Assembly: GCA_000004985.1 (NCBI GenBank) | Contig: GG738874.1 | Strand: one strand, 5' to 3' | DNA length: 64,000 nt | Origin: Naegleria gruberi | Taxonomy: Eukaryota | Part shown: positions 2,826-51,165 of the stretch, piece after piece | How the letters are laid out: every line of letters starts with the position of its first letter | How positions within the stretch are numbered: position 1 is the stretch's first letter | The notes under the pieces: generated by a model | The model's input: the letters and a program-made list of their open reading frames with translations, nothing else | Database searches by the model: none | What the model was told of the DNA's origin: nothing | Position numbers and translations under genes: made by a program

Positions 2826-4991
2826 ATGTTCAACCAAGAGTTTTCATTTCCAGCAAAGAAAGTACCATCATCAACTCATGAATCTCCGAGTATTGACAAT
2901 GAGCAACAGCAACCATTCGAGAAACCTGTAAGGATGGAAAAACCACCCATTCAAAATGATATTGAAGATTATGGCCTTATTGGAAATTGCCACACAGCTT
3001 GCCTTGTTGGTATGAGAGGATCCATCGATTATTGTTGCTTTCCACAATTCGATTCTCCTCCAATCTTTTCCAAACTCATTAGTAATCAACCTGCAGAGAC
3101 TTGTGGATTCTTTTCCATTCATCCAATGCGTATTGAAGATACCACGAATAAGCAACATTACTTTCCCGATTCTAATGTATTGGTCACCAAGTTCTTGTTG
3201 AGTGAAGGTGTTGGTCAATTGGTTGATTTGATGCCTATTTGGTCTGATAGTGGTGTTCATCCACAACAAACCGAAACGATGAATGAATCATCAACAAACT
3301 GCTCAACAATTGAAACTTGTTGTCCTATTACAAAACTCTTCAATTTGTATCACGGCTTCCATAGACAATTAGTGAAAACCAATAGTTCACAGTATAGAAA
3401 TTGCATTATTAGAAGGTTGGAAATTGTGCATGGAAAGATTGAGTTTCAAATTGTTTGTAAACCAATATTCAAATATGGAGCAGAGAAACCTCATGTTGAG
3501 ATATGCTCAAACAAGAAGAGTGTCGTCTTTTCATGTTCTGACCAGGCCATTATTCTTGAATCTAATAGACCATGCTTCGAAAGCATAGATGAAAAGGGAG
3601 CAGTCATTGGTTTGATTGAAATGAGTGAAATTGATCCAGAGAAGAGTTGTGTATTCTGTCTGAGATATTTAGAACAGGGAGATATGAAGGGAAATCATGA
3701 TTGTCAGACCTTATTGGATGAAATGTGCATTAATGAAGATTTGATGCTTATCACCAATGATCTCACTATTAAGACCATTAATTATTGGCAAAAGTACATT
3801 TGTAATAGTAATTACCAAGGAATTTTCAGAGAGATGGTCAATAGATCACTTCTAGCTCTCAAACTTTTAATGTTCAACGAGACAGGAGCTATAATTTCAT
3901 CTCCAACAACATCACTTCCCAAGTCAATTGGTGGTAATAGAAATTATGATTATAGATTTTGCTGGATAAGAGATGCCACCTTCTCAGTTAATGCTTTCCT
4001 CAAGACTGGAATGATTGAAGATGCTGCAAAAATTGTTGGATTTATTGAAAAGACATTTGATTCTGAAAAATCAGATTCCAAACCACTTTCCAATATTTAC
4101 ACAATTATGGGAAAGAAATTGAGCGGTTCCATTCAAGAAATCTCCAAGTTTAGTGGTTTCAAGCAAAGTATGCCTGTACGTGTTGGAAACATGGCTTCCA
4201 ATGCAATAGAATTGGATATTTATGGTGAACTGTTGGATTCAATCTATAACTTTGACATTGTCAGACCAATTTCTTACAACTTTTGGATTAAGTTGAAAGA
4301 TGTAGTTGAATTTGTAATTGAAAATTGGAGAAATCCGGATCATTCCATTTGGGAAAAGAGCAATAATAAGTGTCACTTTGTATATTCCAAAGTCATGTCA
4401 TGGTGTTGTTTGGACAGAGCATTGAGATTGGCTGATAGAAGAAGTTTCCCTGCTCCAAATGATAGATGGCTCAAAATAAGAAATGAAATCTATGAGGATG
4501 TAATGAAGAATGGATACAATGAAAAGATGAACACCTTTGTACAATCCTATGGTTCTGAAGTTCTTGATGTTTCTCTCCTTATTATGCCAATTATTGATTT
4601 TCTTCCAATTTCAGATCCAAGAATGGTCAACACTATCAATGCAATCAATAAGAAACCAAAAGAAGGTGGATTAGTTACCTCATCCCTTGTCTACAGAACC
4701 AGTGATCATCACAAGAGTGAAAAGTCAGCCACAGAGGGCACTTATAATATGCTCACTTTTTGGCTATTGAGAGTTTTGGCCATGATGAGTGATTATGACA
4801 ATAACAAGCTCAGACAAGCCCAACTCATGTTCGAACAAATATCCACCTTTAGTAATCATGTCGATCTCTATAGTGAATTGACCTCCTTTAGTGGTCTCAT
4901 GTTGGGTAATTTTATCCATTCCAATACTCATAGCTCACTCATTGTAGCAGCTGTTGAATTGGCCAAAAGAATTGACAATACAAACCTCTAA
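2826..4991 (+). CDS. Glycoside hydrolase family 15 (glucoamylase/trehalase-like) protein
   Basis: An N-terminal YGLIGNCHTACLVGMRGSIDYCCFPQFDSP block matches the GH15 N-domain. The RNYDYRFCWIRDATFSVNAF block matches the GH15 catalytic-domain hallmark YxYxWIRDxxF. The 721-aa length fits bacterial-type GH15 enzymes rather than phosphorylase-kinase subunits. Confidence 0.65.
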   Translation: MFNQEFSFPAKKVPSSTHESPSIDNEQQQPFEKPVRMEKPPIQNDIEDYGLIGNCHTACLVGMRGSIDYCCFPQFDSPPIFSKLISNQPAETCGFFSIHPMRIEDTTNKQHYFPDSNVLVTKFLLSEGVGQLVDLMPIWSDSGVHPQQTETMNESSTNCSTIETCCPITKLFNLYHGFHRQLVKTNSSQYRNCIIRRLEIVHGKIEFQIVCKPIFKYGAEKPHVEICSNKKSVVFSCSDQAIILESNRPCFESIDEKGAVIGLIEMSEIDPEKSCVFCLRYLEQGDMKGNHDCQTLLDEMCINEDLMLITNDLTIKTINYWQKYICNSNYQGIFREMVNRSLLALKLLMFNETGAIISSPTTSLPKSIGGNRNYDYRFCWIRDATFSVNAFLKTGMIEDAAKIVGFIEKTFDSEKSDSKPLSNIYTIMGKKLSGSIQEISKFSGFKQSMPVRVGNMASNAIELDIYGELLDSIYNFDIVRPISYNFWIKLKDVVEFVIENWRNPDHSIWEKSNNKCHFVYSKVMSWCCLDRALRLADRRSFPAPNDRWLKIRNEIYEDVMKNGYNEKMNTFVQSYGSEVLDVSLLIMPIIDFLPISDPRMVNTINAINKKPKEGGLVTSSLVYRTSDHHKSEKSATEGTYNMLTFWLLRVLAMMSDYDNNKLRQAQLMFEQISTFSNHVDLYSELTSFSGLMLGNFIHSNTHSSLIVAAVELAKRIDNTNL

Positions 4992-15882: not shown

Positions 15883-16752
15883 TTAGAAAAGTGTAGCCAA
15901 AACAAAAAGTACCATAAAGCTTAACATTCCAATCATGTTACTTGATGGAGCCGCATTTCTTGCTGGCAAAATGGCAGAATCATAGACAGAGTATGAGCTC
16001 AAACTGACACCATCCATATCACCCTTTGTGGCAATTCCAGCATCAACCCATGATTTTCTGAGACATGAATAGTATTTGCTGTAGGCATATCTACATCTAG
16101 TAAATAATGAGCTGTCCTCATCAACATATTGATATGAATCAGTTCCAACCATATCAGAACTTGCTGAGACACCCAAATTATAGATACATGCATATACATC
16201 ATAAAAAGACCCGTAACACTTGGCAGCACATTTTCCACCACTTGTTGAGCTAATTGCCTTTCCACCACATGCACAATAACTTCCTGTAGGACAAGAAACT
16301 GTATCAGAGCATTTCAAACCAGACGCATCAGCACATTTACCCTCAGAGGAACAGTAAGCACTGTAACATTCTGTATCCTTCTTACAACTTCCACCCAATG
16401 AAGTTCCATAAAGTCTTTTACACTTATTATCAATACAATCAACCATACCTGAGCTAGTGTAGGCGCAATCACTTGCAACAATACAGAATTCACCATAGGT
16501 AGCAATTCTTTGACAGGTGGTTGAAGTATCACCATTAGAAACTTGACGACAAACCAATCCAGAAACACAAGGAACGAAATCAGAACTAATTGCAGATTTA
16601 ACACAAGGTTGACTATATTGAATTTGCTCAACACAAGTAGCAATAGTCAATGAAGTATATTTACAATACAATCCATTATCACACACAACCTTCTTTGAAG
16701 TATCAGACAATGCACAATTTTCTCCTTTTTTAGCAATAACTTTTTGAATACA
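15883..16752 (-). CDS. Cysteine-rich protein with a C-terminal GPI-anchor-like hydrophobic tail (paralogue of the adjacent gene)
   Basis: About 40 Cys are regularly spaced (C..G..C......C modules). The C-terminus reads SSNMIGMLSFMVLFVLATLF. An in-frame ATG at 16752 is immediately preceded by TAA. The track start at 16710 is TTG. No N-terminal signal peptide is found in this exon, so an unrecognised upstream exon or a link to the neighbouring gene is possible. Confidence 0.5.
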   Translation of the reverse strand, partial: CIQKVIAKKGENCALSDTSKKVVCDNGLYCKYTSLTIATCVEQIQYSQPCVKSAISSDFVPCVSGLVCRQVSNGDTSTTCQRIATYGEFCIVASDCAYTSSGMVDCIDNKCKRLYGTSLGGSCKKDTECYSAYCSSEGKCADASGLKCSDTVSCPTGSYCACGGKAISSTSGGKCAAKCYGSFYDVYACIYNLGVSASSDMVGTDSYQYVDEDSSLFTRCRYAYSKYYSCLRKSWVDAGIATKGDMDGVSLSSYSVYDSAILPARNAAPSSNMIGMLSFMVLFVLATLF

Positions 16753-20018: not shown

Positions 20019-20795
20019 TTATGGAGCTCCTTCAAGAGTGAGCATTGAAAGAGGATACATTGGTTTTCCTTCATGAACATATTTAAACCATTGGAATGGT
20101 TCCATTCCTCTCAGTTTCTTTGTTCTCTTCTGGAGAAAATCATTTTCAAATTCCTCATATGAAAACCATTTAGCACATACACTTTCAAAATCAGGAATTG
20201 ATTTCAAAACTGGATCTTCTTCCAATGGTTCAGCATAGAAAATGACTCTTGATCTAGCACCTCCATCGTGATAAGGAGAATACTCAAATCTCAAAATATT
20301 TTTCAATTCGACATGAATTCCAGCTTCTTCCAAAGTTTCTCTCAGAGCTGCTTGTTGGAAAGTTTCACCAGGATCCACTCTACCAGCTGGTAACCACCAA
20401 CCCTGTGAACAGCCCTCCTCAACCAATAGGAATTTACCACTCACTGGATTTCTAATAATCACCAAAGCAAAAGAATAGGTTGGCTTTAAAGAATTCTGAT
20501 AATCGATTTCATCCTTCTTTCGTTGTTCTGGTGTAGCCTTAAAACCATGCTCATTGTAAATGTGAGTCGAGAATCCCCATTGCCTAGATCCCTTCAATGA
20601 GTCATCAAGATCCCTCTTGAGACAAATTGGACAAACCTGTTTGGTATTCTCTCTGCAGTGGACTTGCAAACAGTGAGTAATTAATTCATCTTCGGAAAAT
20701 GTCTGACCAGAATGAGTGCAAGATTCATAGGAACATTTGAATCTTTCTGGTTGTTGAGTGAGGCCTTTGGTTTTGTTCATGAGTGATGAAAACAT
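20019..20795 (-). CDS. NUDIX hydrolase with an N-terminal C2H2/zinc-finger-like region
   Basis: The Nudix box is GRVDPGETFQQAALRETLEEAGI (GX5EX7REUXEEXGU). The N-terminus has CSYESCTHSGQ...HCLQVHC and CPICLK Cys/His clusters. Confidence 0.75.
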   Translation of the reverse strand: MFSSLMNKTKGLTQQPERFKCSYESCTHSGQTFSEDELITHCLQVHCRENTKQVCPICLKRDLDDSLKGSRQWGFSTHIYNEHGFKATPEQRKKDEIDYQNSLKPTYSFALVIIRNPVSGKFLLVEEGCSQGWWLPAGRVDPGETFQQAALRETLEEAGIHVELKNILRFEYSPYHDGGARSRVIFYAEPLEEDPVLKSIPDFESVCAKWFSYEEFENDFLQKRTKKLRGMEPFQWFKYVHEGKPMYPLSMLTLEGAP

Positions 20796-21198: not shown

Positions 21199-22317
21199 AT
21201 GGAACGTGATGATGAAAAAATCCCTTCCGAAGTGTGGCAACATCTCATCTTTCCCTTCATTGATGGGTTTTCATTGATGAGAGGATGTTTTTATGTTTCA
21301 AAGAATTGGTCACTGATGGTTTCAGAGATGAGGAATTGCAGTTTAATTGTAGATAAGAAGAATGTGCATAATCGAATCTTGAAAAGAATTTGTAATCATT
21401 TGCCAATCATGCATGTTACCGCTTTGGATATGTCATACAATATTTTCGATAAGAATAGCATTGAAACTTTGAAGAATGGAAAGAATCTGAAATTGGAACA
21501 ATTGAATTCCTTGCATTTGGTGTATAATAATATAGGATTGGAAGTATTAACCCCATTGTTGGAATGCAATGTATTGAATAATTTAACTCGATTGAATTTG
21601 GACTCTAATATTGTACATGATGGCCTGAAATACTTGTTGGAGTGTAAAAATTTGAGAAATTTAGAATATCTAATTGTGAAGAACAATGCCATGACCAATA
21701 TTCGTAAAACACAAATAGAATCAAATAATAATTTTCCAAAATTGACCTACCTGGATATTTCCTCAAATACCATTGGAGCATATGGTACCAAACTTTTATC
21801 AGATTCTGGAATACTCAATAATTTACAAACACTCAATATTTCATACAATTTACTAAGAAATGGTGCCAAGTATTTGGGTAGAAATTCTACATTTATGGAG
21901 AACGTCACCCACTTGGACTTGAGTAATAACAATTTGAAAGTGGAAGGATTAACACAACTACTTAAATTTCTCAAATCTAGCAAACTGAAGATACTAAACC
22001 TCTCAAACAATAATATTGGAAATGATGGAATTTCAAAATTAATCGAGTGCACTCATTTAAAGAGTTTGGAAAAACTATCACTCATTGAAAATGATATTGG
22101 TGCTCAAGGAGTTAACCTACTTGCCAATACACCATTCGAAAATCTGACCTTCCTCAATCTGAATAGAAATCCAATCAGCCACAATTCAAGAAATCTCTTT
22201 CAACCAAACAATTTTCCCAAGCTCAAAGAAATCAAACTTTCCAAAGAAGTTGCGATAAAACAAGCTTCAAATTATGAATCCTATGCATTCATTTATTCAA
22301 GAAATAAATACCGATAG
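21199..22317 (+). CDS. Leucine-rich repeat protein (ribonuclease-inhibitor/NLR-type LRRs)
   Basis: About 10 repeats fit the LxxLxLxxNxIGxxGxxxL pattern, for example LKILNLSNNNIGNDGISKL and LEKLSLIENDIGAQGVNLL. Confidence 0.75.
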   Translation: MERDDEKIPSEVWQHLIFPFIDGFSLMRGCFYVSKNWSLMVSEMRNCSLIVDKKNVHNRILKRICNHLPIMHVTALDMSYNIFDKNSIETLKNGKNLKLEQLNSLHLVYNNIGLEVLTPLLECNVLNNLTRLNLDSNIVHDGLKYLLECKNLRNLEYLIVKNNAMTNIRKTQIESNNNFPKLTYLDISSNTIGAYGTKLLSDSGILNNLQTLNISYNLLRNGAKYLGRNSTFMENVTHLDLSNNNLKVEGLTQLLKFLKSSKLKILNLSNNNIGNDGISKLIECTHLKSLEKLSLIENDIGAQGVNLLANTPFENLTFLNLNRNPISHNSRNLFQPNNFPKLKEIKLSKEVAIKQASNYESYAFIYSRNKYR

Positions 22318-23043
22318 CATTTCTTCTATTTGAGTATTCTCTTGTTTTTTCCAAATCAAAACCTGAATTTATTGAGAATCACTTTTACCGCCAAAATTAT
22401 TAAAGAATCAAGTGAAAAGAAAAATTGCAACAACTCATCATCACCAGGTTGTGCTGTTTTTATAATGCTGCTATCCTGAAGATCTGTAGCGTTGACCATT
22501 ATGAATTTAAATTATGGAAAGCAATATCACATTCATCACAATGTAATCTATTCATTATCCGTCTTATAAAGGATAACAATCAAGCCAAGTTTGTGGTTTG
22601 AACAAAAACAACAAGATAACAATGATAACCAATAACATCAAGCCGATTAACATTTTCGATACGCAGTATTAATTTCATCAGCAAAAACCTTTTGTGGCAT
22701 ATTGACCACAATATCGGTCCAACAAACAGTTGTTTATCATTTAAAATTTACACTAAATATAATTGTTGATACAATCCGTGCTCTGTGCTCAGTACAGAGG
22801 AGCATATTGTATATTGTACAGCGTAATAACAATTAACCACATAACGCACTTAGTTATTGTGTCTACTACAACTCATCATCTTTTTCTCTGGTTCAACTTG
22901 CTTGCATTGAATTTGCCCATAACAAGAAAAAAAATTACTTGTCTCTAACGAAAAACCGGTTGTTAATCGACAATCATCATAATTGTATTTTCATCATCAA
23001 CCTAACGAAATTTTCGTTCATCAATTTAGACGAATATAATACA

Positions 23044-24765
23044 ATGTTTGATCCTAGCGATATGAGCAATATTCCTCTTGCTGGGACAGTTTATCCAACA
23101 GAAGAAGAATTTAAAAATCCAATAGAATATCTTGAATCTGTAAGACATTTAGGAGAAAAGTATGGTATTCTTAAAATTGTACCACCTGAAAAGTATAAAT
23201 TAGACCCTGCTGAAGACTTTGACGACCTTCAGGTAAAAGCCAATGCTTTTAAATTTATTTGCAAAATACAGAATATTAACCAACTTCAATTCAGAAATAA
23301 GAAACAAAAGTTAGAATTTGAAAATAATATTAAATCGGAGGTGGATGAATCATCATCTTTAGAAAATTCATTAAAGAGAAAAGCTGAAAATCTTTCAGAT
23401 TCGCCACAGAAAAGACTTAAAGATAACTCTGACAAATCCTTCAAACCAATAATTACATCTATGGGTGGTGATGATAGTTTTGGCTTTGAAAGAACCAAGA
23501 AGGAAATATCTCTTAAGAAATACAAGGAAATGGCTGATGAATTTTCAAGACGTCATCTCAAGTCTATACAGAAACAATTATCCCCTTCCTCACCTGAAGA
23601 GAAGAGACTCAAGACTTGTGAAAATGCAAAATCATCGACAAACTCTTCCAATCTTGATATGACTAGTCTTAGTGATGATGAAATTGAAAAAGAATATTGG
23701 AGAATTGTGAATAATCACGAAGAAACTGTAACTGTACAATATGGAAACGATTTACCTGTTTCTGATTATCAAACCTTTTTCCCAGCCAGTTGGAAACAAG
23801 GATGGGATGCAAATTTATTGCCTAAACTTCCTGATTCACTGCTATCTTTCCTTAATATTGATATTCCTGGTGTGAATACTCCAATGTTATATGTTGGTAT
23901 GCTTTTCAGTTCTTTCTGTTGGCATGTTGAAGATCATTTCATGTATGCCATGAATTTTATACATCACGGTGCTCCAAAACAATGGTATGGTATTCCAGCA
24001 TCAGGGGCAGATAAGTTTGAAGAGGTGTTTCGTAGAATGTTCCCTAATCTCATGGATGGGCAGCCTGCTATTTTACACATGCTTGTAACACAAATAAGCC
24101 CAGCCATTCTTGCACGCGAAGGTGTTCCTGTCTATAGAATTGTACATGAACCTGGTACTTTTATCATTACATTCCCTAGAGCTTACCATGCTGGCTTCAA
24201 TCAAGGTTTTAATATTGCCGAATCTGTAAACTTTACCTCAACATCATGGCTTCCTTATAACCGTTTGGCTCTTTCCAAATATTATGAATGCAAGAGAGCA
24301 ACCACTTTCCCTTACGAACATCTAATTCTCTCAGCTGTTACATCGATAATTTCTGGCAAGTCCAACCCTTCAACTTCTAAATACACATTTTCAACACGAG
24401 AATCACTCAAAGATGAGTTATCATACATTTCAAAGGATGAGAAGGAATTAAGAGAATGTTTAGCAGCACTCCTAACAGATAAAACGCCAAGACAAATGCC
24501 ACAAATATCAAATAGAAATATTGAAAAGTTAAGAACATGCTCCAAGAAGGATAATAACATCAGATGTTGTCAATGCAATTCTGATTGTTACATATCTGCT
24601 GCTGTTCTTAAAGGAAGAAAGAAGGAAGATAACTTTTGTTTAAGGTGCGCCATAGAAAAGGCAAAAGAAAGTGAAGACTTTGCTAAGAAATGTTACATGA
24701 TTGAAAGAATGACTTTGAAAGATTTAGAAATCTTGATAGAAAAGTTCGAAAAGGTGTTAGCTTGA
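23044..24765 (+). CDS. JmjN/JmjC-domain histone lysine demethylase (KDM4/KDM5-like) with a C-terminal Cys-rich zinc finger
   Basis: JmjN is TEEEFKNPIEYLESVRHLGEKYGILKIVPP. JmjC has the Fe ligands (HVEDH...H) in FCWHVEDHFMYAMNFIHHGAPKQWYGIP and ITFPRAYHAGFNQGFN. A C-terminal CCQCNSDC...CLRCAIEK cluster follows. The ATG at 23044 is in frame with the track ORF that starts upstream at 22939. Confidence 0.8.
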   Translation: MFDPSDMSNIPLAGTVYPTEEEFKNPIEYLESVRHLGEKYGILKIVPPEKYKLDPAEDFDDLQVKANAFKFICKIQNINQLQFRNKKQKLEFENNIKSEVDESSSLENSLKRKAENLSDSPQKRLKDNSDKSFKPIITSMGGDDSFGFERTKKEISLKKYKEMADEFSRRHLKSIQKQLSPSSPEEKRLKTCENAKSSTNSSNLDMTSLSDDEIEKEYWRIVNNHEETVTVQYGNDLPVSDYQTFFPASWKQGWDANLLPKLPDSLLSFLNIDIPGVNTPMLYVGMLFSSFCWHVEDHFMYAMNFIHHGAPKQWYGIPASGADKFEEVFRRMFPNLMDGQPAILHMLVTQISPAILAREGVPVYRIVHEPGTFIITFPRAYHAGFNQGFNIAESVNFTSTSWLPYNRLALSKYYECKRATTFPYEHLILSAVTSIISGKSNPSTSKYTFSTRESLKDELSYISKDEKELRECLAALLTDKTPRQMPQISNRNIEKLRTCSKKDNNIRCCQCNSDCYISAAVLKGRKKEDNFCLRCAIEKAKESEDFAKKCYMIERMTLKDLEILIEKFEKVLA

Positions 24766-24886
24766 AAATAAATAGCTGCCAGATTCGAAAAACCAGTTAA
24801 TATGGGTCTGTAGTAAACACAGGTTATTCTAATTTTTATCTAAATATAATTTAACATAATGAGTATATTTTCAATATGAATAAGAT

Positions 24887-24958
24887 TCCCGTGTAGTCCA
24901 ATGGCTAGGATACCTGGCTTTCACCCAGGAGGTCCGGGTTCAATTCCCGGCATGGGAG
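24887..24958 (+). tRNA. tRNA-Glu (anticodon UUC)
   Basis: A cloverleaf could be drawn by hand. The acceptor is TCCCGTG/CATGGGA with one G-U pair. The D-arm is GTCC...GGAT. The anticodon stem CCTGG/CCAGG carries the loop CTTTCAC (TTC). The T-arm is CCGGG-TTCAATT-CCCGG. Total length is 72 nt. Confidence 0.9.
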
Positions 24959-25043
24959 GATAATTTTGCATTCAATAATAATTTAAGTTAATAAATATTT
25001 CTAACTTTATTTACAGGTAATAGAGAAAAATTTGTTAACTATT

Positions 25044-26015
25044 TTACAAGGATGGTTTGACGACTGGCTTTGATGGCTTCTTACATGTCTTTCTCTTTAA
25101 GCAAATCTTCTTCTTAATTGACTTGCAACACTTCTTCTTTCCACCCACTAATTTAAATTTCTTACAAATCTTCTTTCCCTTTGAACGTTTCAAACACTTC
25201 TTATAGTACTTCTTCTTGATACATCTTGGTGGAATGACAATAAACTTGGCACAATACTTCTTCTTTTGATATTTGACACATTTAGACAATGTCTTTCTAT
25301 GCTTACAGAACTTGATGGTCTTATGCTTGGCACAGAAGAATTTTTTCTTAATGAGACAACACTTCTTAACTGATTTTCTTTCCTTACAGTATTTAACCTT
25401 CTTATACTTGGCACATTTCTTTGCCCATGAAACAATCTTACACTTTTTAACATATCTACATTTGGAGACCTTCTTATTGTAGGAATCAACAGTGTACTTG
25501 TCACAGACCTTCTTCTTTTCACACTTCTTGATTGGAACCTTCTTGAATTTCTTACAGACCTTCTTATATCCCTTCTTGAAACACTTGTTGATAATCTTGT
25601 GCTTGGCACAGAATTTCTTGAAACCCTTCTTGATGCAAATCTTCTTAGTTCCATAAGAATCACAAACTTTCCAATACTTCTTCTTGGCACATCCAACAAT
25701 CTTGTATGCATGCAAGACACACTTCTTTGTTGGCTTGCTATACTTGTCACATTTGGAATATTTCTTATGTTTGAGACATTTACCAGCACCGACAATGGCG
25801 TATTGATCACAGACCTTCTTTTGACCAACGAGTTTGTGTTTCAAACACTTCTTAATCCACTTGTGCTTTAAGCATTTTCTCTTACAATGCTTTGGCTTGT
25901 GATACTTGTCAACTACAACGACTGGAGGTTTTGTTTGATAGCTGTCAGTTGCTTGAACTGAGAGGATTGCAAGCAAGAGAAGAAGTGCAATTGAAAAGAA
26001 AAGATTTGCTTTCAT
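25044..26015 (-). CDS. Secreted, extremely lysine-rich and cysteine-rich repetitive protein
   Basis: A signal peptide (MKANLFFSIALLLLLAILSVQA) is followed by about 300 aa that are roughly one-third Lys, with a Cys about every 8-10 residues (KKC, CLKHK, CAKHK units). The alternative-frame ORFs listed on both strands are artefacts of the repetitive codons. Confidence 0.65.
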   Translation of the reverse strand: MKANLFFSIALLLLLAILSVQATDSYQTKPPVVVVDKYHKPKHCKRKCLKHKWIKKCLKHKLVGQKKVCDQYAIVGAGKCLKHKKYSKCDKYSKPTKKCVLHAYKIVGCAKKKYWKVCDSYGTKKICIKKGFKKFCAKHKIINKCFKKGYKKVCKKFKKVPIKKCEKKKVCDKYTVDSYNKKVSKCRYVKKCKIVSWAKKCAKYKKVKYCKERKSVKKCCLIKKKFFCAKHKTIKFCKHRKTLSKCVKYQKKKYCAKFIVIPPRCIKKKYYKKCLKRSKGKKICKKFKLVGGKKKCCKSIKKKICLKRKTCKKPSKPVVKPSL

Positions 26016-35577: not shown

Positions 35578-35650
35578 GCTGGCGTAGCTCAGTCGGTAGA
35601 GCGTTGGTCTAATAAGCCATTGGTCGCCGGTTCGATCCCGTCCGTCAGCA
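35578..35650 (+). tRNA. tRNA-Ile (anticodon AAU)
   Basis: The acceptor GCTGGCG/CGTCAGC pairs with one G-U. The D-arm is the classic GCTCAGTCGGTAGAGC. The anticodon loop CTAATAA gives AAT. The T-loop is TTCGATC. One mismatch sits at the 27-43 position of the anticodon stem and one C-T mismatch in the T-stem, so the gene could be slightly degenerate. Confidence 0.7.
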
Positions 35651-48261: not shown

Positions 48262-48333
48262 GGCCGTATAGCTCAGTGGTAGAGCTTCTCTCTCGTAAGG
48301 AGAAGGTCGTGGGTTCAAACCCCATTGCGGCCA
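48262..48333 (+). tRNA. tRNA-Thr (anticodon CGU)
   Basis: The acceptor GGCCGTA/TGCGGCC pairs. The D-arm is GCTCAGTGGTAGAGC. The anticodon loop CTCGTAA gives CGT. The T-arm is GTGGG-TTCAAAC-CCCAT. Total length is 72 nt. Confidence 0.85.
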
Positions 48334-48923: not shown

Positions 48924-49847
48924 TTATTTTTCCATAGACAATACTCTTTGAAAACTCAACAAGTTCACCATTCTCTCCTTCATTCCTAAATCAATAACTT
49001 CCGATCTTGCATGCTTTTCCATGTGCTCAAAATAATGGCACCCATCGCAAAGCAATTCAAATTCCTTCAATTTTTCTACTTGTTCCTCTTCGGTCATTCC
49101 AAGAATTAACTTGTACTCATTAACATTATTGGCTATTTCCCTCTCTTCCTCATCGATATCTTCTGTTGCTTGAGCTCTCTTCTTCACACCATCCCTATTC
49201 TTGTGATGCACATGGAATATCTTTCCCAATTCTGAATTAGATTCAAAAGACAAGCCACATTCCTGACATTTTCCTCCCATCAGAGTGATCATCTTTTCAT
49301 GACAATATTGCCAATTAGAACCACCTTCAACATTCCTTGCATGTTCCAAACCATGACAAGGTCTGCACAATACTTCCAACTTTTCATTCTTCTTGAACCA
49401 ATCAGCTCCAAGCTTTCTGAATTCGGGAATGAATTTTGTTGTACTCTTAAATGTCTTTGTAAAGTCATCATCTTTATACATGACATGATGAAGAGTGAAT
49501 GCATTAACCTCATGTAAATGTTCCATTTCAATACGACATCTATTGCACTTGATTGACAAATCATCCCTCTCCAACACTTCTCTTAAAAAAGTATGAATGG
49601 CAGCTTGCTTTTTTCTGGAAATGTAAACAGCACATCTGGGACATGTTTCATCATCCTTCAATTTAACAGAACCAAAACAAAAATGGCAGTTGACACCTTC
49701 AGCTCTAATCTTGTTAATCCTGTCACTCATTTGAAGTATAGTCTTTTTGGAACATTCCTTGCACTTGTCCCTATTTGTCTTCGAAACAAGTTGGCCGCAT
49801 CCACACAACCCTTGGTCTCTACGAGTGCATTTTCGTGCTCTTTCCAA
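48924..49847 (-). CDS. Zinc-ribbon protein with two tandem HNH (His-Me finger) nuclease motifs
   Basis: An N-terminal CxC...CxxC ribbon (GLCGCGQLVSKTNRDKCKEC) is present. Two modules follow with the CxxC...HH...N...LCxxCH architecture. The first reads CNRC...TLHHVMYKD...KNEKLEVLCRPCHGLEH. The second reads CQEC...FHVHHKNRD...LLCDGCHYFEH. The ATG at 49847 opens a 307-aa ORF that could be expressed on its own. Confidence 0.6.
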   Translation of the reverse strand: MERARKCTRRDQGLCGCGQLVSKTNRDKCKECSKKTILQMSDRINKIRAEGVNCHFCFGSVKLKDDETCPRCAVYISRKKQAAIHTFLREVLERDDLSIKCNRCRIEMEHLHEVNAFTLHHVMYKDDDFTKTFKSTTKFIPEFRKLGADWFKKNEKLEVLCRPCHGLEHARNVEGGSNWQYCHEKMITLMGGKCQECGLSFESNSELGKIFHVHHKNRDGVKKRAQATEDIDEEEREIANNVNEYKLILGMTEEEQVEKLKEFELLCDGCHYFEHMEKHARSEVIDLGMKERMVNLLSFQRVLSMEK

Positions 49848-50372
49848 CTCGTTAGCTCTCTCACGTTGCTCATTGGATTGAGCAATGTGATTACTTAACT
49901 TCTTAACAAAATCTCTAAAGCCATTAGAGTATTGAAAAGTTCCATCATGAATAGCATTTTTGAATTTCTACCAAGTTTCTATTCTCTTTTCATTATTCTT
50001 GAATTTATCTGGGAAATGATCATACAATTCTTGGACATATGCAAGATAAGCCCTTGCCAATTTCGAACCATATTCATGAGAAATATTGGATGAAGGTCTT
50101 GGAGGACACTTGTTGAGTTTAACATTATCCAATATGGGAAGGAATTCTTCCAAGATTGAATTGTTGGGTTGATTTCTCTTCTTGGTTGGTGGAGTTGATT
50201 CAATGGTAGAATCCCTTCTCTTCTTACTATCATTACTTGATGAAGGCTTGTTGGAATTATTTGAAGATTGACCAGAGTTGCTAATAATAATACATGATGA
50301 TTGACTAGTTGATGATGATGAAGCCTTTCTGGTAGACTTTGGTTGAATTGATAACGTGGTTGATGATAACAC
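49848..50372 (-). pseudogene. In-frame 5' extension of the HNH gene, interrupted by a TAG and lacking any ATG
   Basis: The 134-codon ORF 49968..50372 (Ser/Asn-rich, ...KFKNNEKRIETW) ends in TAG at 49968-49970. It continues in the same frame through KFKNAIHDGTFQYSNGFRDFVKKLSNHIAQSNEQRERANELERARK into the HNH ORF, since 49967 minus 49847 equals 120. The extension begins right after a TAA and its first sense codon is GTG. It contains no Met codon. Confidence 0.55.
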
Positions 50373-50873: not shown

Positions 50874-51165
50874 TCATAGTTCAGTAAAGATGAACAGCAC
50901 ATGTGTCGGCTGTACTGTCAAGGCTTGGGATGAGAGTATACTAATATCTGGAATCATCTTCTTCATCTTGTCACTCATTGGGATTGTATTCTTTTTGGAA
51001 CATTCTTTGCACTTGTCCCTATTTGTCTTCGAAACAGGTTGGCCGCATCCACACAACCCTTGTTCTCTACGAGTGCATTTTCTTGCTCTTTCCAATTCAT
51101 TAGCCCTCTCACGTTGCTCATTGGATTGAGCAATGTGATTACTCAAGTTCTTCACAAATTGATTT
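50874..51165 (-). pseudogene. Truncated second copy of the HNH gene 5' region
   Basis: About 190 nt (50960..51152) are roughly 90% identical to 49721..49910. They encode ...KNLSNHIAQSNEQRERANELERARKCTRREQGLCGCGQPVSKTNRDKCKECSKK, then diverge and terminate. Confidence 0.75.

Follow-up and report, generated by a model that had tools for sequence, protein, structure and literature searches.

A lysine- and cysteine-rich gene of Naegleria and its relatives

Contig GG738874.1 of Naegleria gruberi (assembly GCA_000004985.1) carries, within the 64,000-nucleotide stretch analysed here (the window), a gene for a secreted protein that is exceptionally rich in Lys and Cys. It is encoded on the reverse strand as an unbroken open reading frame (ORF) of 323 amino acids that begins with the first ATG after a stop codon. 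The parts of the gene are listed below; the ORF list and the sequence define the coding region, and the arms are drawn from the Cys positions, a dynamic-programming pairing and a table of mirrored intervals.

25044..26015 (-): complete single-exon coding sequence of the Lys/Cys-rich secreted protein, 323 codons plus a stop codon at 25044..25046
25950..26015 (-): predicted signal peptide, residues 1-22 (MKANLFFSIALLLLLAILSVQA), with cleavage predicted after VQA, as read from sequence and hydropathy
25887..25949 (-): N-terminal tail, residues 23-43 (TDSYQTKPPVVVVDKYHKPKH), with two D-x-Y motifs
25503..25886 (-): N arm of the putative ladder, residues 44-171, with 15 Cys
25461..25502 (-): central loop or putative hairpin tip, residues 172-185 (DKYTVDSYNKKVSK), with two D-x-Y motifs
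25083..25460 (-): C arm of the putative ladder, residues 186-311, with 17 Cys
25047..25082 (-): C-terminal tail, residues 312-323 (KKPSKPVVKPSL), hydrophilic, with neither a transmembrane or glycosylphosphatidylinositol (GPI)-like segment nor a KDEL-type signal

An earlier note, made from the DNA letters alone, had described a secreted protein of about one-third lysine with almost no acidic residues, and the composition agrees with this: Lys accounts for 107 residues (33.1%), and Asp and Glu together for nine (2.8%; 7 Asp and 2 Glu). Cys contributes a further 32 residues (9.9%) and Tyr 5.6%. The canonical signal peptide of that note is likewise upheld by sequence, hydropathy and the leaders of homologues. 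The N-terminus, MKANLFFSIALLLLLAILSVQA followed by TD, has a hydrophobic core and V-Q-A at positions -3 to -1, its top 19-residue Kyte-Doolittle mean is 2.37 (at residue 5), and the homologues bear a comparable N-terminal hydrophobic leader. Past residue 25 no hydrophobic segment is seen (top 19-residue mean 0.30); hydropathy points to no membrane span or GPI-like segment in the mature protein, and a scan of the protein for N-glycosylation sequons returned none. The mature chain of 301 residues has a net charge of about +104. Its isoelectric point (pI), earlier placed well above 10, is 10.7 if the Cys are taken as disulfide-bonded, but only 10.2 if they are taken as free thiols.

A 1.3-kb contig assembled from the public run SRR32051688 (L002) holds a full-length orthologue at L002:290-1264, which is 78% identical to the window protein and keeps 30 of its 32 Cys and 93 of its 107 Lys. 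The two genes differ at 43, 38 and 114 sites of the first, second and third codon positions respectively, with a synonymous divergence (dS) of 1.13, a nonsynonymous divergence (dN) of 0.14 and a dN/dS of 0.12. Because this ratio is low and third-position differences dominate, we take the reading frame, which is the one chosen in the earlier note, as settled, and the comparison shows that the gene is real, conserved in Naegleria and under purifying selection. A 212-residue Arg/Ser-rich ORF lies inside the gene in a second frame of the same strand (25190..25828, -). It is a shadow of the AAG-rich Lys/Cys frame, which the same codon-position statistics support as the correct one. The L002 orthologue is open throughout except for one in-frame TGA at the site of window Gly108, beside Cys109; this could be a sequencing error, a mark of a recent pseudogene or a polymorphism. 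Among the 29 window ORFs compared, the gene has the top AAG fraction of Lys codons (0.77) and the top GC content at third codon positions (0.48). Its Lys-Lys pairs are written AAG-AAG 27 times and AAA-AAA once, and the longest run of A is six, a bias consistent with high expression, with poly(A) tracts being selected against, or with both. The low-complexity composition, the Arg/Ser-rich ORF in the other frame and the TGA of L002 might be taken to mean a chance ORF in AT-rich low-complexity DNA, or a wrong frame. This explanation is effectively refuted by the dN/dS of 0.12 with its excess of third-position differences, by the strong codon bias and by the conservation of the signal peptide and Cys columns among homologues down to about 27% identity.

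The earlier note named no homologue, but relatives are present in three Naegleria species (N. gruberi, N. fowleri and N. lovaniensis) and in environmental samples or metagenomes. The closest database proteins are 'predicted proteins' of N. gruberi, namely NAEGRDRAFT_76199, with 87% identity to the window protein over its own C-terminal 154 residues, and NAEGRDRAFT_67458, with 44-50% identity across the full length. Searched by profile, a set of 1.8 billion representatives returned 18 hits, of which P0013 and P0014 are spurious repeats. The search added N. fowleri FDP41_004030 (379 amino acids), N. lovaniensis C9374_009239 (430 amino acids) and N. gruberi NAEGRDRAFT_66117 (475 amino acids), along with several environmental fragments and two remoter, less basic environmental proteins (P0015 and P0018/P0022). 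We group NAEGRDRAFT_67458, NAEGRDRAFT_66117, NAEGRDRAFT_76199, FDP41_004030 and C9374_009239 as the Naegleria K/C ladder protein family. The window protein shares the features by which we recognize it: a signal peptide, about 10% Cys most often spaced as C-x8-C, a central loop as the axis of mirror symmetry and a pI of at least 9. Every family member has a pI of at least 9.2. Further word-indexed searches and scans of metagenome DNA brought no additional members, a search of the rest of the 64-kb window found no paralogue, and the genomic contexts of P0018, P0005 and P0012 were uninformative. Pfam-A gave no family for the window protein at expectation (E) values up to 10, and none for the homologues P0008, P0021 and P0022 at E up to 0.01. 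In the PDB there was no sequence, profile or fold match for the window protein. A literature search by locus tags and accessions, and of Naegleria cyst-wall proteomes and encystment transcriptomes, found no mention of any family member, and the supplements of two papers held no relevant match.

The gene model of NAEGRDRAFT_76199 (P0002, XP_002668872.1), the apparent N. gruberi orthologue, joins a SAM/PB1-domain N-terminus to the C arm alone, without the signal peptide and the N arm. As the SAM/PB1 part is not encoded anywhere in the 64-kb window, this model, or the 39.8-kb scaffold on which it lies, is probably chimeric and hides a ladder gene.

Mirror symmetry of the cysteine spacing

The Cys periodicity pointed out earlier, one residue in every 8-10, is far beyond chance. 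Twenty of the 31 gaps between successive Cys fall within 8-10 residues and 14 are exactly 9, the modal spacing, and the lag-9 autocorrelation of 16 exceeds every one of 5000 shuffles (mean 3.2, maximum 10). The C-x8-C unit has the consensus [A/L/I/K]-K-[H/K/Y]-K-x-x-K-x-C. Tandem Repeats Finder detected no repeat in the DNA of the gene; a tandem DNA repeat was accordingly rejected as the origin of the periodicity. The Cys pattern is thus kept up at the level of the protein and is not what remains of a recent duplication.

The description of the protein as a near-continuous array of short basic units holds insofar as these are basic and periodic, but their actual organization is a mirror image about the centre and not a tandem array. 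The N-arm Cys lie at positions 44, 48, 57, 69, 80, 89, 99, 109, 118, 127, 136, 145, 154, 165 and 171, so that the gaps from the N-terminus run 4, 9, 12, 11, 9, 10, 10, 9, 9, 9, 9, 9, 11 and 6, followed by a gap of 15. Counted inward from the C-terminus, with the two Cys of a CC doublet treated as a single site, the C half has gaps of 6, 9, 12, 10, 9, 10, 9, 9, 9, 9, 9, 9, 9 and 6. Gaps other than 9 thus stand at mirrored positions in the two halves and not at translated ones, and a direct repeat of the halves was rejected because the two lists match when mirrored and not when shifted. Fifteen of the 17 C-arm Cys mirror N-arm partners; the two extra Cys belong to the CC doublets at 219/220 and 296/297, and other members have one to three Cys outside the ladder. 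A nested pairing obtained by dynamic programming has 15 rungs, from C171-C186 outward to C44-C311, with the summed positions of the partners (i+j) at 353-357 throughout, and its mirror centre is exactly the 15-residue gap, which encloses the 14-residue central loop. The mean mismatch between mirrored intervals is 0.43 residues, a value equalled or bettered in 47 of 100,000 gap permutations.

The same analysis of eight family members, the window protein included, gives z-scores of 3.9-5.7 and ladders that span nearly the entire Cys-bearing region. With 300 shuffles per member, the observed ladder score was reached in none for seven members and in two for the eighth. The best ladders of the seven relatives have 14-19 rungs, and in N. 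fowleri P0008 i+j stays at 382-385 over 15 rungs. The lengths of N-arm and C-arm intervals are correlated (r = 0.84 over 121 intervals, which are not independent because the members are homologous). At the level of the primary structure, then, the Cys spacing is mirror-symmetric about the central loop and is not a head-to-tail repeat. Duplication cannot give rise to a mirrored spacing, which is the arrangement that an antiparallel pairing of the halves would call for.

Because the relatives share ancestry, independent evidence lies in the places where they differ from one another. In P0003 one interval is 9/9 in the two arms where the others have 12/12, the tripeptide LVG having been lost from both CLKHK-LVG-QKKVC and CKKFK-LVG-GKKKC; these two segments are about 225 residues apart and are opposed in the ladder. 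The adjoining 11/10 interval of P0003 is also shortened, to 9/9, and both Cys of its outermost rung (window C44 and C311) are missing. Likewise, N. fowleri P0008 is missing both Cys of one inner rung (C180-C269 of P0007, C165-C192 of the window protein), so that mirror-placed gaps of 17 and 18 are left. A single interval of P0007 and P0021 has gained residues in each of its two arms (15-17 against 21), and both of these insertions contain D-x-Y-x-P motifs; in P0015 one interval departs from that of P0022 by +2/+2. In the longer paralogues from N. fowleri, N. lovaniensis and N. gruberi, the large insertions occur exactly at the predicted tip, where new symmetric rungs have been added (4/4, 7/4 and 9/9). 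By a rough and informal estimate each such coincidence has a chance of about 1/14, and all of them together would be very unlikely without physical pairing. The comparison shows that the two halves co-vary as antiparallel partners.

A second pattern concerns the few acidic residues. All seven Asp of the window protein stand in a D-x-Y motif (TDSY, VDKY, CDQY, CDKY, CDSY, CDKY and VDSY), a count that none of 5000 shuffles attained (mean 0.41). Enrichment is just as strong in all the Naegleria members, where the motif often takes the form D-x-Y-x-P, and the motif is concentrated in the central loop and the two tails, the two ends of the putative hairpin. At the C-terminus of the N. fowleri homologue there are four tandem D-[ST]-Y-K-P units with a seven-residue spacing (one DTYKP and three DSYKP). 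The distant P0015 and P0022 keep the ladder without enrichment of D-x-Y (none and one, respectively) and with just 13-14% Lys. The ladder is therefore the ancestral feature, and extreme Lys content and D-x-Y are later specializations. Cross-linking or modification of Tyr, or sugar binding, are candidate roles for the motif.

Neighbouring genes and other cysteine-rich segments

A gene for the transfer RNA (tRNA) tRNA-Glu(TTC) lies at 24886..24959 (+), convergent with the Lys/Cys-rich gene and 84 bp past its stop codon; further tRNA genes of the window are Ile-AAT (35578..35650) and Thr-CGT (48262..48333). The adjoining ORF at 22939..24765 (+) combines JmjN and JmjC domains with a C5HC2 zinc finger, as in histone demethylases, and beyond it lie genes for a leucine-rich repeat (LRR) protein (21199..22317) and a NUDIX/zf-Di19 protein (20019..20795). 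These neighbours have no apparent functional link to the Lys/Cys-rich gene. Elsewhere in the window, an ORF at 2826..4991 (+) encodes a glycoside hydrolase family 15 domain with a trehalase-like N-terminal domain.

Other Cys-rich segments were also seen. A separate ORF at 15883..16710 (-), with 24 Cys, 21 Tyr and no Pfam match, ends in a hydrophobic tail (…MIGMLSFMVLFVLATLF) and looks like a GPI-anchored or tail-anchored surface protein whose true start is probably upstream. Two near-alike coding segments about 1.2 kb apart, at approximately 49690-49870 (-) and 50950-51130 (-), read …QRERANELERARKCTRR.QGLCGCGQ.VSKTNRDKCKECSKK…; the ORFs around them have no Pfam match, and the pair suggests a local duplication of a small gene with a Cys/basic motif. 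Among the environmental relatives, P0022 (from a JGI metagenome; its counterpart P0018 lies on L001:3836-5977) has a different Cys-rich region ahead of the ladder domain, at residues of about 100-410. There a period of about 40 residues is made up of Cys gaps of 18, 5, 5 and 8-12 repeated, with 'CP…' motifs and no Pfam match. The contig L001 has 39% GC, and the neighbours of P0018 on it are Ras/Roc-like.

A putative giant cystine-ladder hairpin

The protein appears to be a secreted polycation that is confined to Naegleria and its relatives. As an explanation of the above patterns we favour a giant cystine-ladder hairpin that serves as a cross-linkable component of a wall or matrix, a reading that, taken whole, falls a little short of being probable. 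Its parts differ in strength. Antiparallel pairing of the two arms is likely, and, given such pairing, we lean modestly towards its being within one molecule. A role in an extracellular matrix, for which the cyst wall is the first candidate, is possible but rather doubtful. The N half (C44-C171) and the C half (C186-C311) would run antiparallel, with about 15 disulfide rungs between them at intervals of roughly 9 residues. The inner rungs would be C171-C186, C165-C192, C154-C201, C145-C210, C136-C219/220, C127-C228, C118-C237 and C109-C246, and the outer ones C99-C255, C89-C265, C80-C274, C69-C284, C57-C296/297, C48-C305 and C44-C311. With no hydrophobic core and with like-charged arms that repel each other, the molecule would be held together by its covalent rungs. 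It would also tolerate proteases, as single nicks would be survived and severing it would need cuts of both arms in the same interval. The product would be a long, stiff, positively charged molecule able to bind polyanionic material outside the cell. The Tyr-bearing D-x-Y motifs at both ends of the hairpin (in the tails and in the loop) and the two leftover Cys are candidate cross-linking points, by which the protein might serve the cyst wall, or a different extracellular matrix, as structural material or 'mortar'. The polyanion-binding, cyst-wall or adhesive, and antimicrobial-precursor roles proposed in the earlier note are all compatible with these data.

An AlphaFold2 model built with 14 sequences has a hairpin of strands 148-175 and 182-210 with a turn between them, at a predicted local distance difference test (pLDDT) mostly of about 70-93. 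Its register, with i+j of about 357, matches C171-C186 and C165-C192, and a run with three sequences agrees. Strands at 96-115 and 243-261 are placed in a roughly mirrored manner.

Several points weigh against the hairpin reading. The AlphaFold2 model is poor overall (mean pLDDT 58 and predicted template modelling score 0.26 with the 14 sequences) and is confident only at the tip hairpin; with low confidence it also folds 123-143 into a local hairpin and gives helix or coil for 211-242, in conflict with the ladder in those parts. A spacing of 9 is odd, and in a regular antiparallel sheet an odd spacing makes rungs alternate between non-hydrogen-bonded and hydrogen-bonded sites, the latter of which disfavour disulfides. 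The segments between rungs therefore are not all canonical beta-strand, and bulges or non-beta segments would be required. A test of cross-strand hydrophobic and basic residue classes gave no preference for the ladder register, and the disulfide pairing itself is deduced purely from spacing. The L002 orthologue is without the equivalent of C44 yet has that of C311, and the codon bias may be due to poly(A) tracts being avoided and not to high expression. The ladder topology is better supported than any particular conformation.

Two rival structures use the same Cys differently. The arms might pair between molecules through the same mirrored rungs, giving an antiparallel homodimer or a staggered polymer. 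Mirror symmetry is equally compatible with such a dimer, and P0007 and P0021 have an odd number of Cys in the mature chain (37), so that at least one of these must be unpaired or intermolecular. We nevertheless consider this arrangement decidedly unlikely, since insertions concentrate at the centre as they would at a hairpin tip, the central hairpin modelled by AlphaFold2 at a pLDDT mostly of about 70-93 is intramolecular, and the rungs nearest the loop (C171 and C186 being 14 residues apart) are typical of a hairpin. Alternatively, the regular C-x8-C unit and the low AlphaFold2 confidence across most of the chain could point to small loops strung like beads by sequential disulfides (C1-C2, C3-C4), or to an unstructured Cys-rich polycation cross-linked at random. 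This is most improbable: sequential pairing does not require mirror symmetry, it leaves unexplained the joint loss of mirror-partner Cys and the matched insertions and deletions in intervals more than 200 residues apart, and the translational alignment of the halves is poor (the gap lists having been compared by eye).

Two further rivals keep the ladder and change its role. By analogy with cationic beta-hairpin antimicrobial peptides, the protein could be an enlarged version of these, a phagosomal or secreted polycation that kills or agglutinates bacteria by binding lipopolysaccharide, teichoic acids or membranes. Naegleria feeds on bacteria, the family occurs in all Naegleria genomes seen and is uniformly basic (pI of at least 9.2), and a net charge of about +104, a signal peptide and the topology of a disulfide-stapled cationic hairpin would all suit this function. 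Such a role appears unlikely all the same, as the sequence has no anionic propiece and no clear amphipathic pattern, and as the two leftover Cys and the D-x-Y tips fit cross-linked material better; moreover, known hairpin antimicrobial peptides are shorter than 30 residues and have 1-3 rungs (PMC6327110 for theta-defensins). An adhesive function, in which the protein would act as a natural 'polylysine' on negatively charged mineral or glass with Lys and Tyr working jointly as in mussel foot proteins, could draw on the 33% Lys and 5.6% Tyr, the enrichment of D-x-Y(-x-P) and the four tandem D-[ST]-Y-K-P units at the end of the N. fowleri homologue. It is very unlikely in view of the motif being unlike the mussel decapeptides, there being no sign of 3,4-dihydroxyphenylalanine (DOPA) formation or of a tyrosinase partner, and the distant P0015 and P0022 keeping the ladder with just 13-14% Lys and no enrichment of D-x-Y.

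With regard to known systems, the hairpin reading finds its closest counterparts in build among the theta-defensins with their cyclic cystine ladder and the cationic beta-hairpin peptides tachyplesin, protegrin and arenicin. Common to them and the window protein are a strong positive charge and, putatively in the window protein, two antiparallel strands with parallel disulfide rungs. Those peptides have 17-25 residues, 1-3 rungs and Cys 2-4 residues apart, whereas the ladder of the window protein would extend over about 270 residues with about 15 rungs (to about 19 in relatives) 9 residues apart. Unlike theta-defensins, which are backbone-cyclized products of defensin-like precursors, it has free termini with no backbone cyclization, no sequence similarity to them and an odd spacing that precludes a regular beta-ladder throughout. 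Theta-defensins have three rungs in 18 residues, and the ladder-like motif of HAP2 also has three (PMC6327110). The ladder proposed here is much larger than any cystine ladder we found described.

Among proteins of resistant walls, the apicomplexan oocyst wall proteins (COWP of Cryptosporidium and OWP of Toxoplasma) are secreted, have a Cys every 10-12 residues or so and are thought to be disulfide-cross-linked in the wall. The window protein resembles them in being secreted by a wall-forming protist and in its regular Cys, but has no sequence similarity to them (no Pfam hit at E up to 10). COWPs consist of tandem repeat domains and are not hyper-basic, and we know of no mirror symmetry described for them. 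Giardia CWP1-3 combine LRRs with a Cys-rich region, and CWP2 has a basic tail. These cyst-wall proteins, together with the lectins Luke, Leo and Jonah of Acanthamoeba (PMC6541295) and Jacob and Jessie of Entamoeba, are Cys-rich, bind wall polysaccharide and are deposited at encystment. The window protein shares with them a signal peptide and high Cys content, and differs in composition and topology; Pfam found none of their LRRs, chitin-binding Cys domains, CBM49 or other domains in it or in P0008, P0021 and P0022. Mussel foot proteins and schistosome eggshell proteins are extracellular and cross-linkable, with high Lys and Tyr in short repeats by Pro; they rely on DOPA and are poor in Cys or use it otherwise. 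Their Lys and Tyr motifs are similar to those seen here, but they are without a disulfide ladder and are not homologous.

The family may, as we tentatively propose, represent an undescribed architecture: a one-chain hairpin tens of nanometres long, without a hydrophobic core and kept intact solely by 15-19 evenly spaced rungs. With a charge of about +100 and cross-linkable tips, it would be a protease-redundant polycationic rod that helps build the cyst wall or extracellular matrix of Naegleria, including the pathogen N. fowleri. The prediction of a ladder is a sharp one, as 15 specific disulfide pairs are named. If the ladder is real, it would take the cystine-ladder principle beyond its three rungs in 18 residues, to 15-19 rungs over about 270 residues. 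Stable extracellular proteins could then be built in a new way that does without a hydrophobic core, which would be of relevance to protein design. Few encystation molecules are known in Naegleria, and its cyst-wall and matrix proteins are essentially unknown (PMC8063937); the N. fowleri member FDP41_004030 and the rest of the family are concrete candidates for such proteins.

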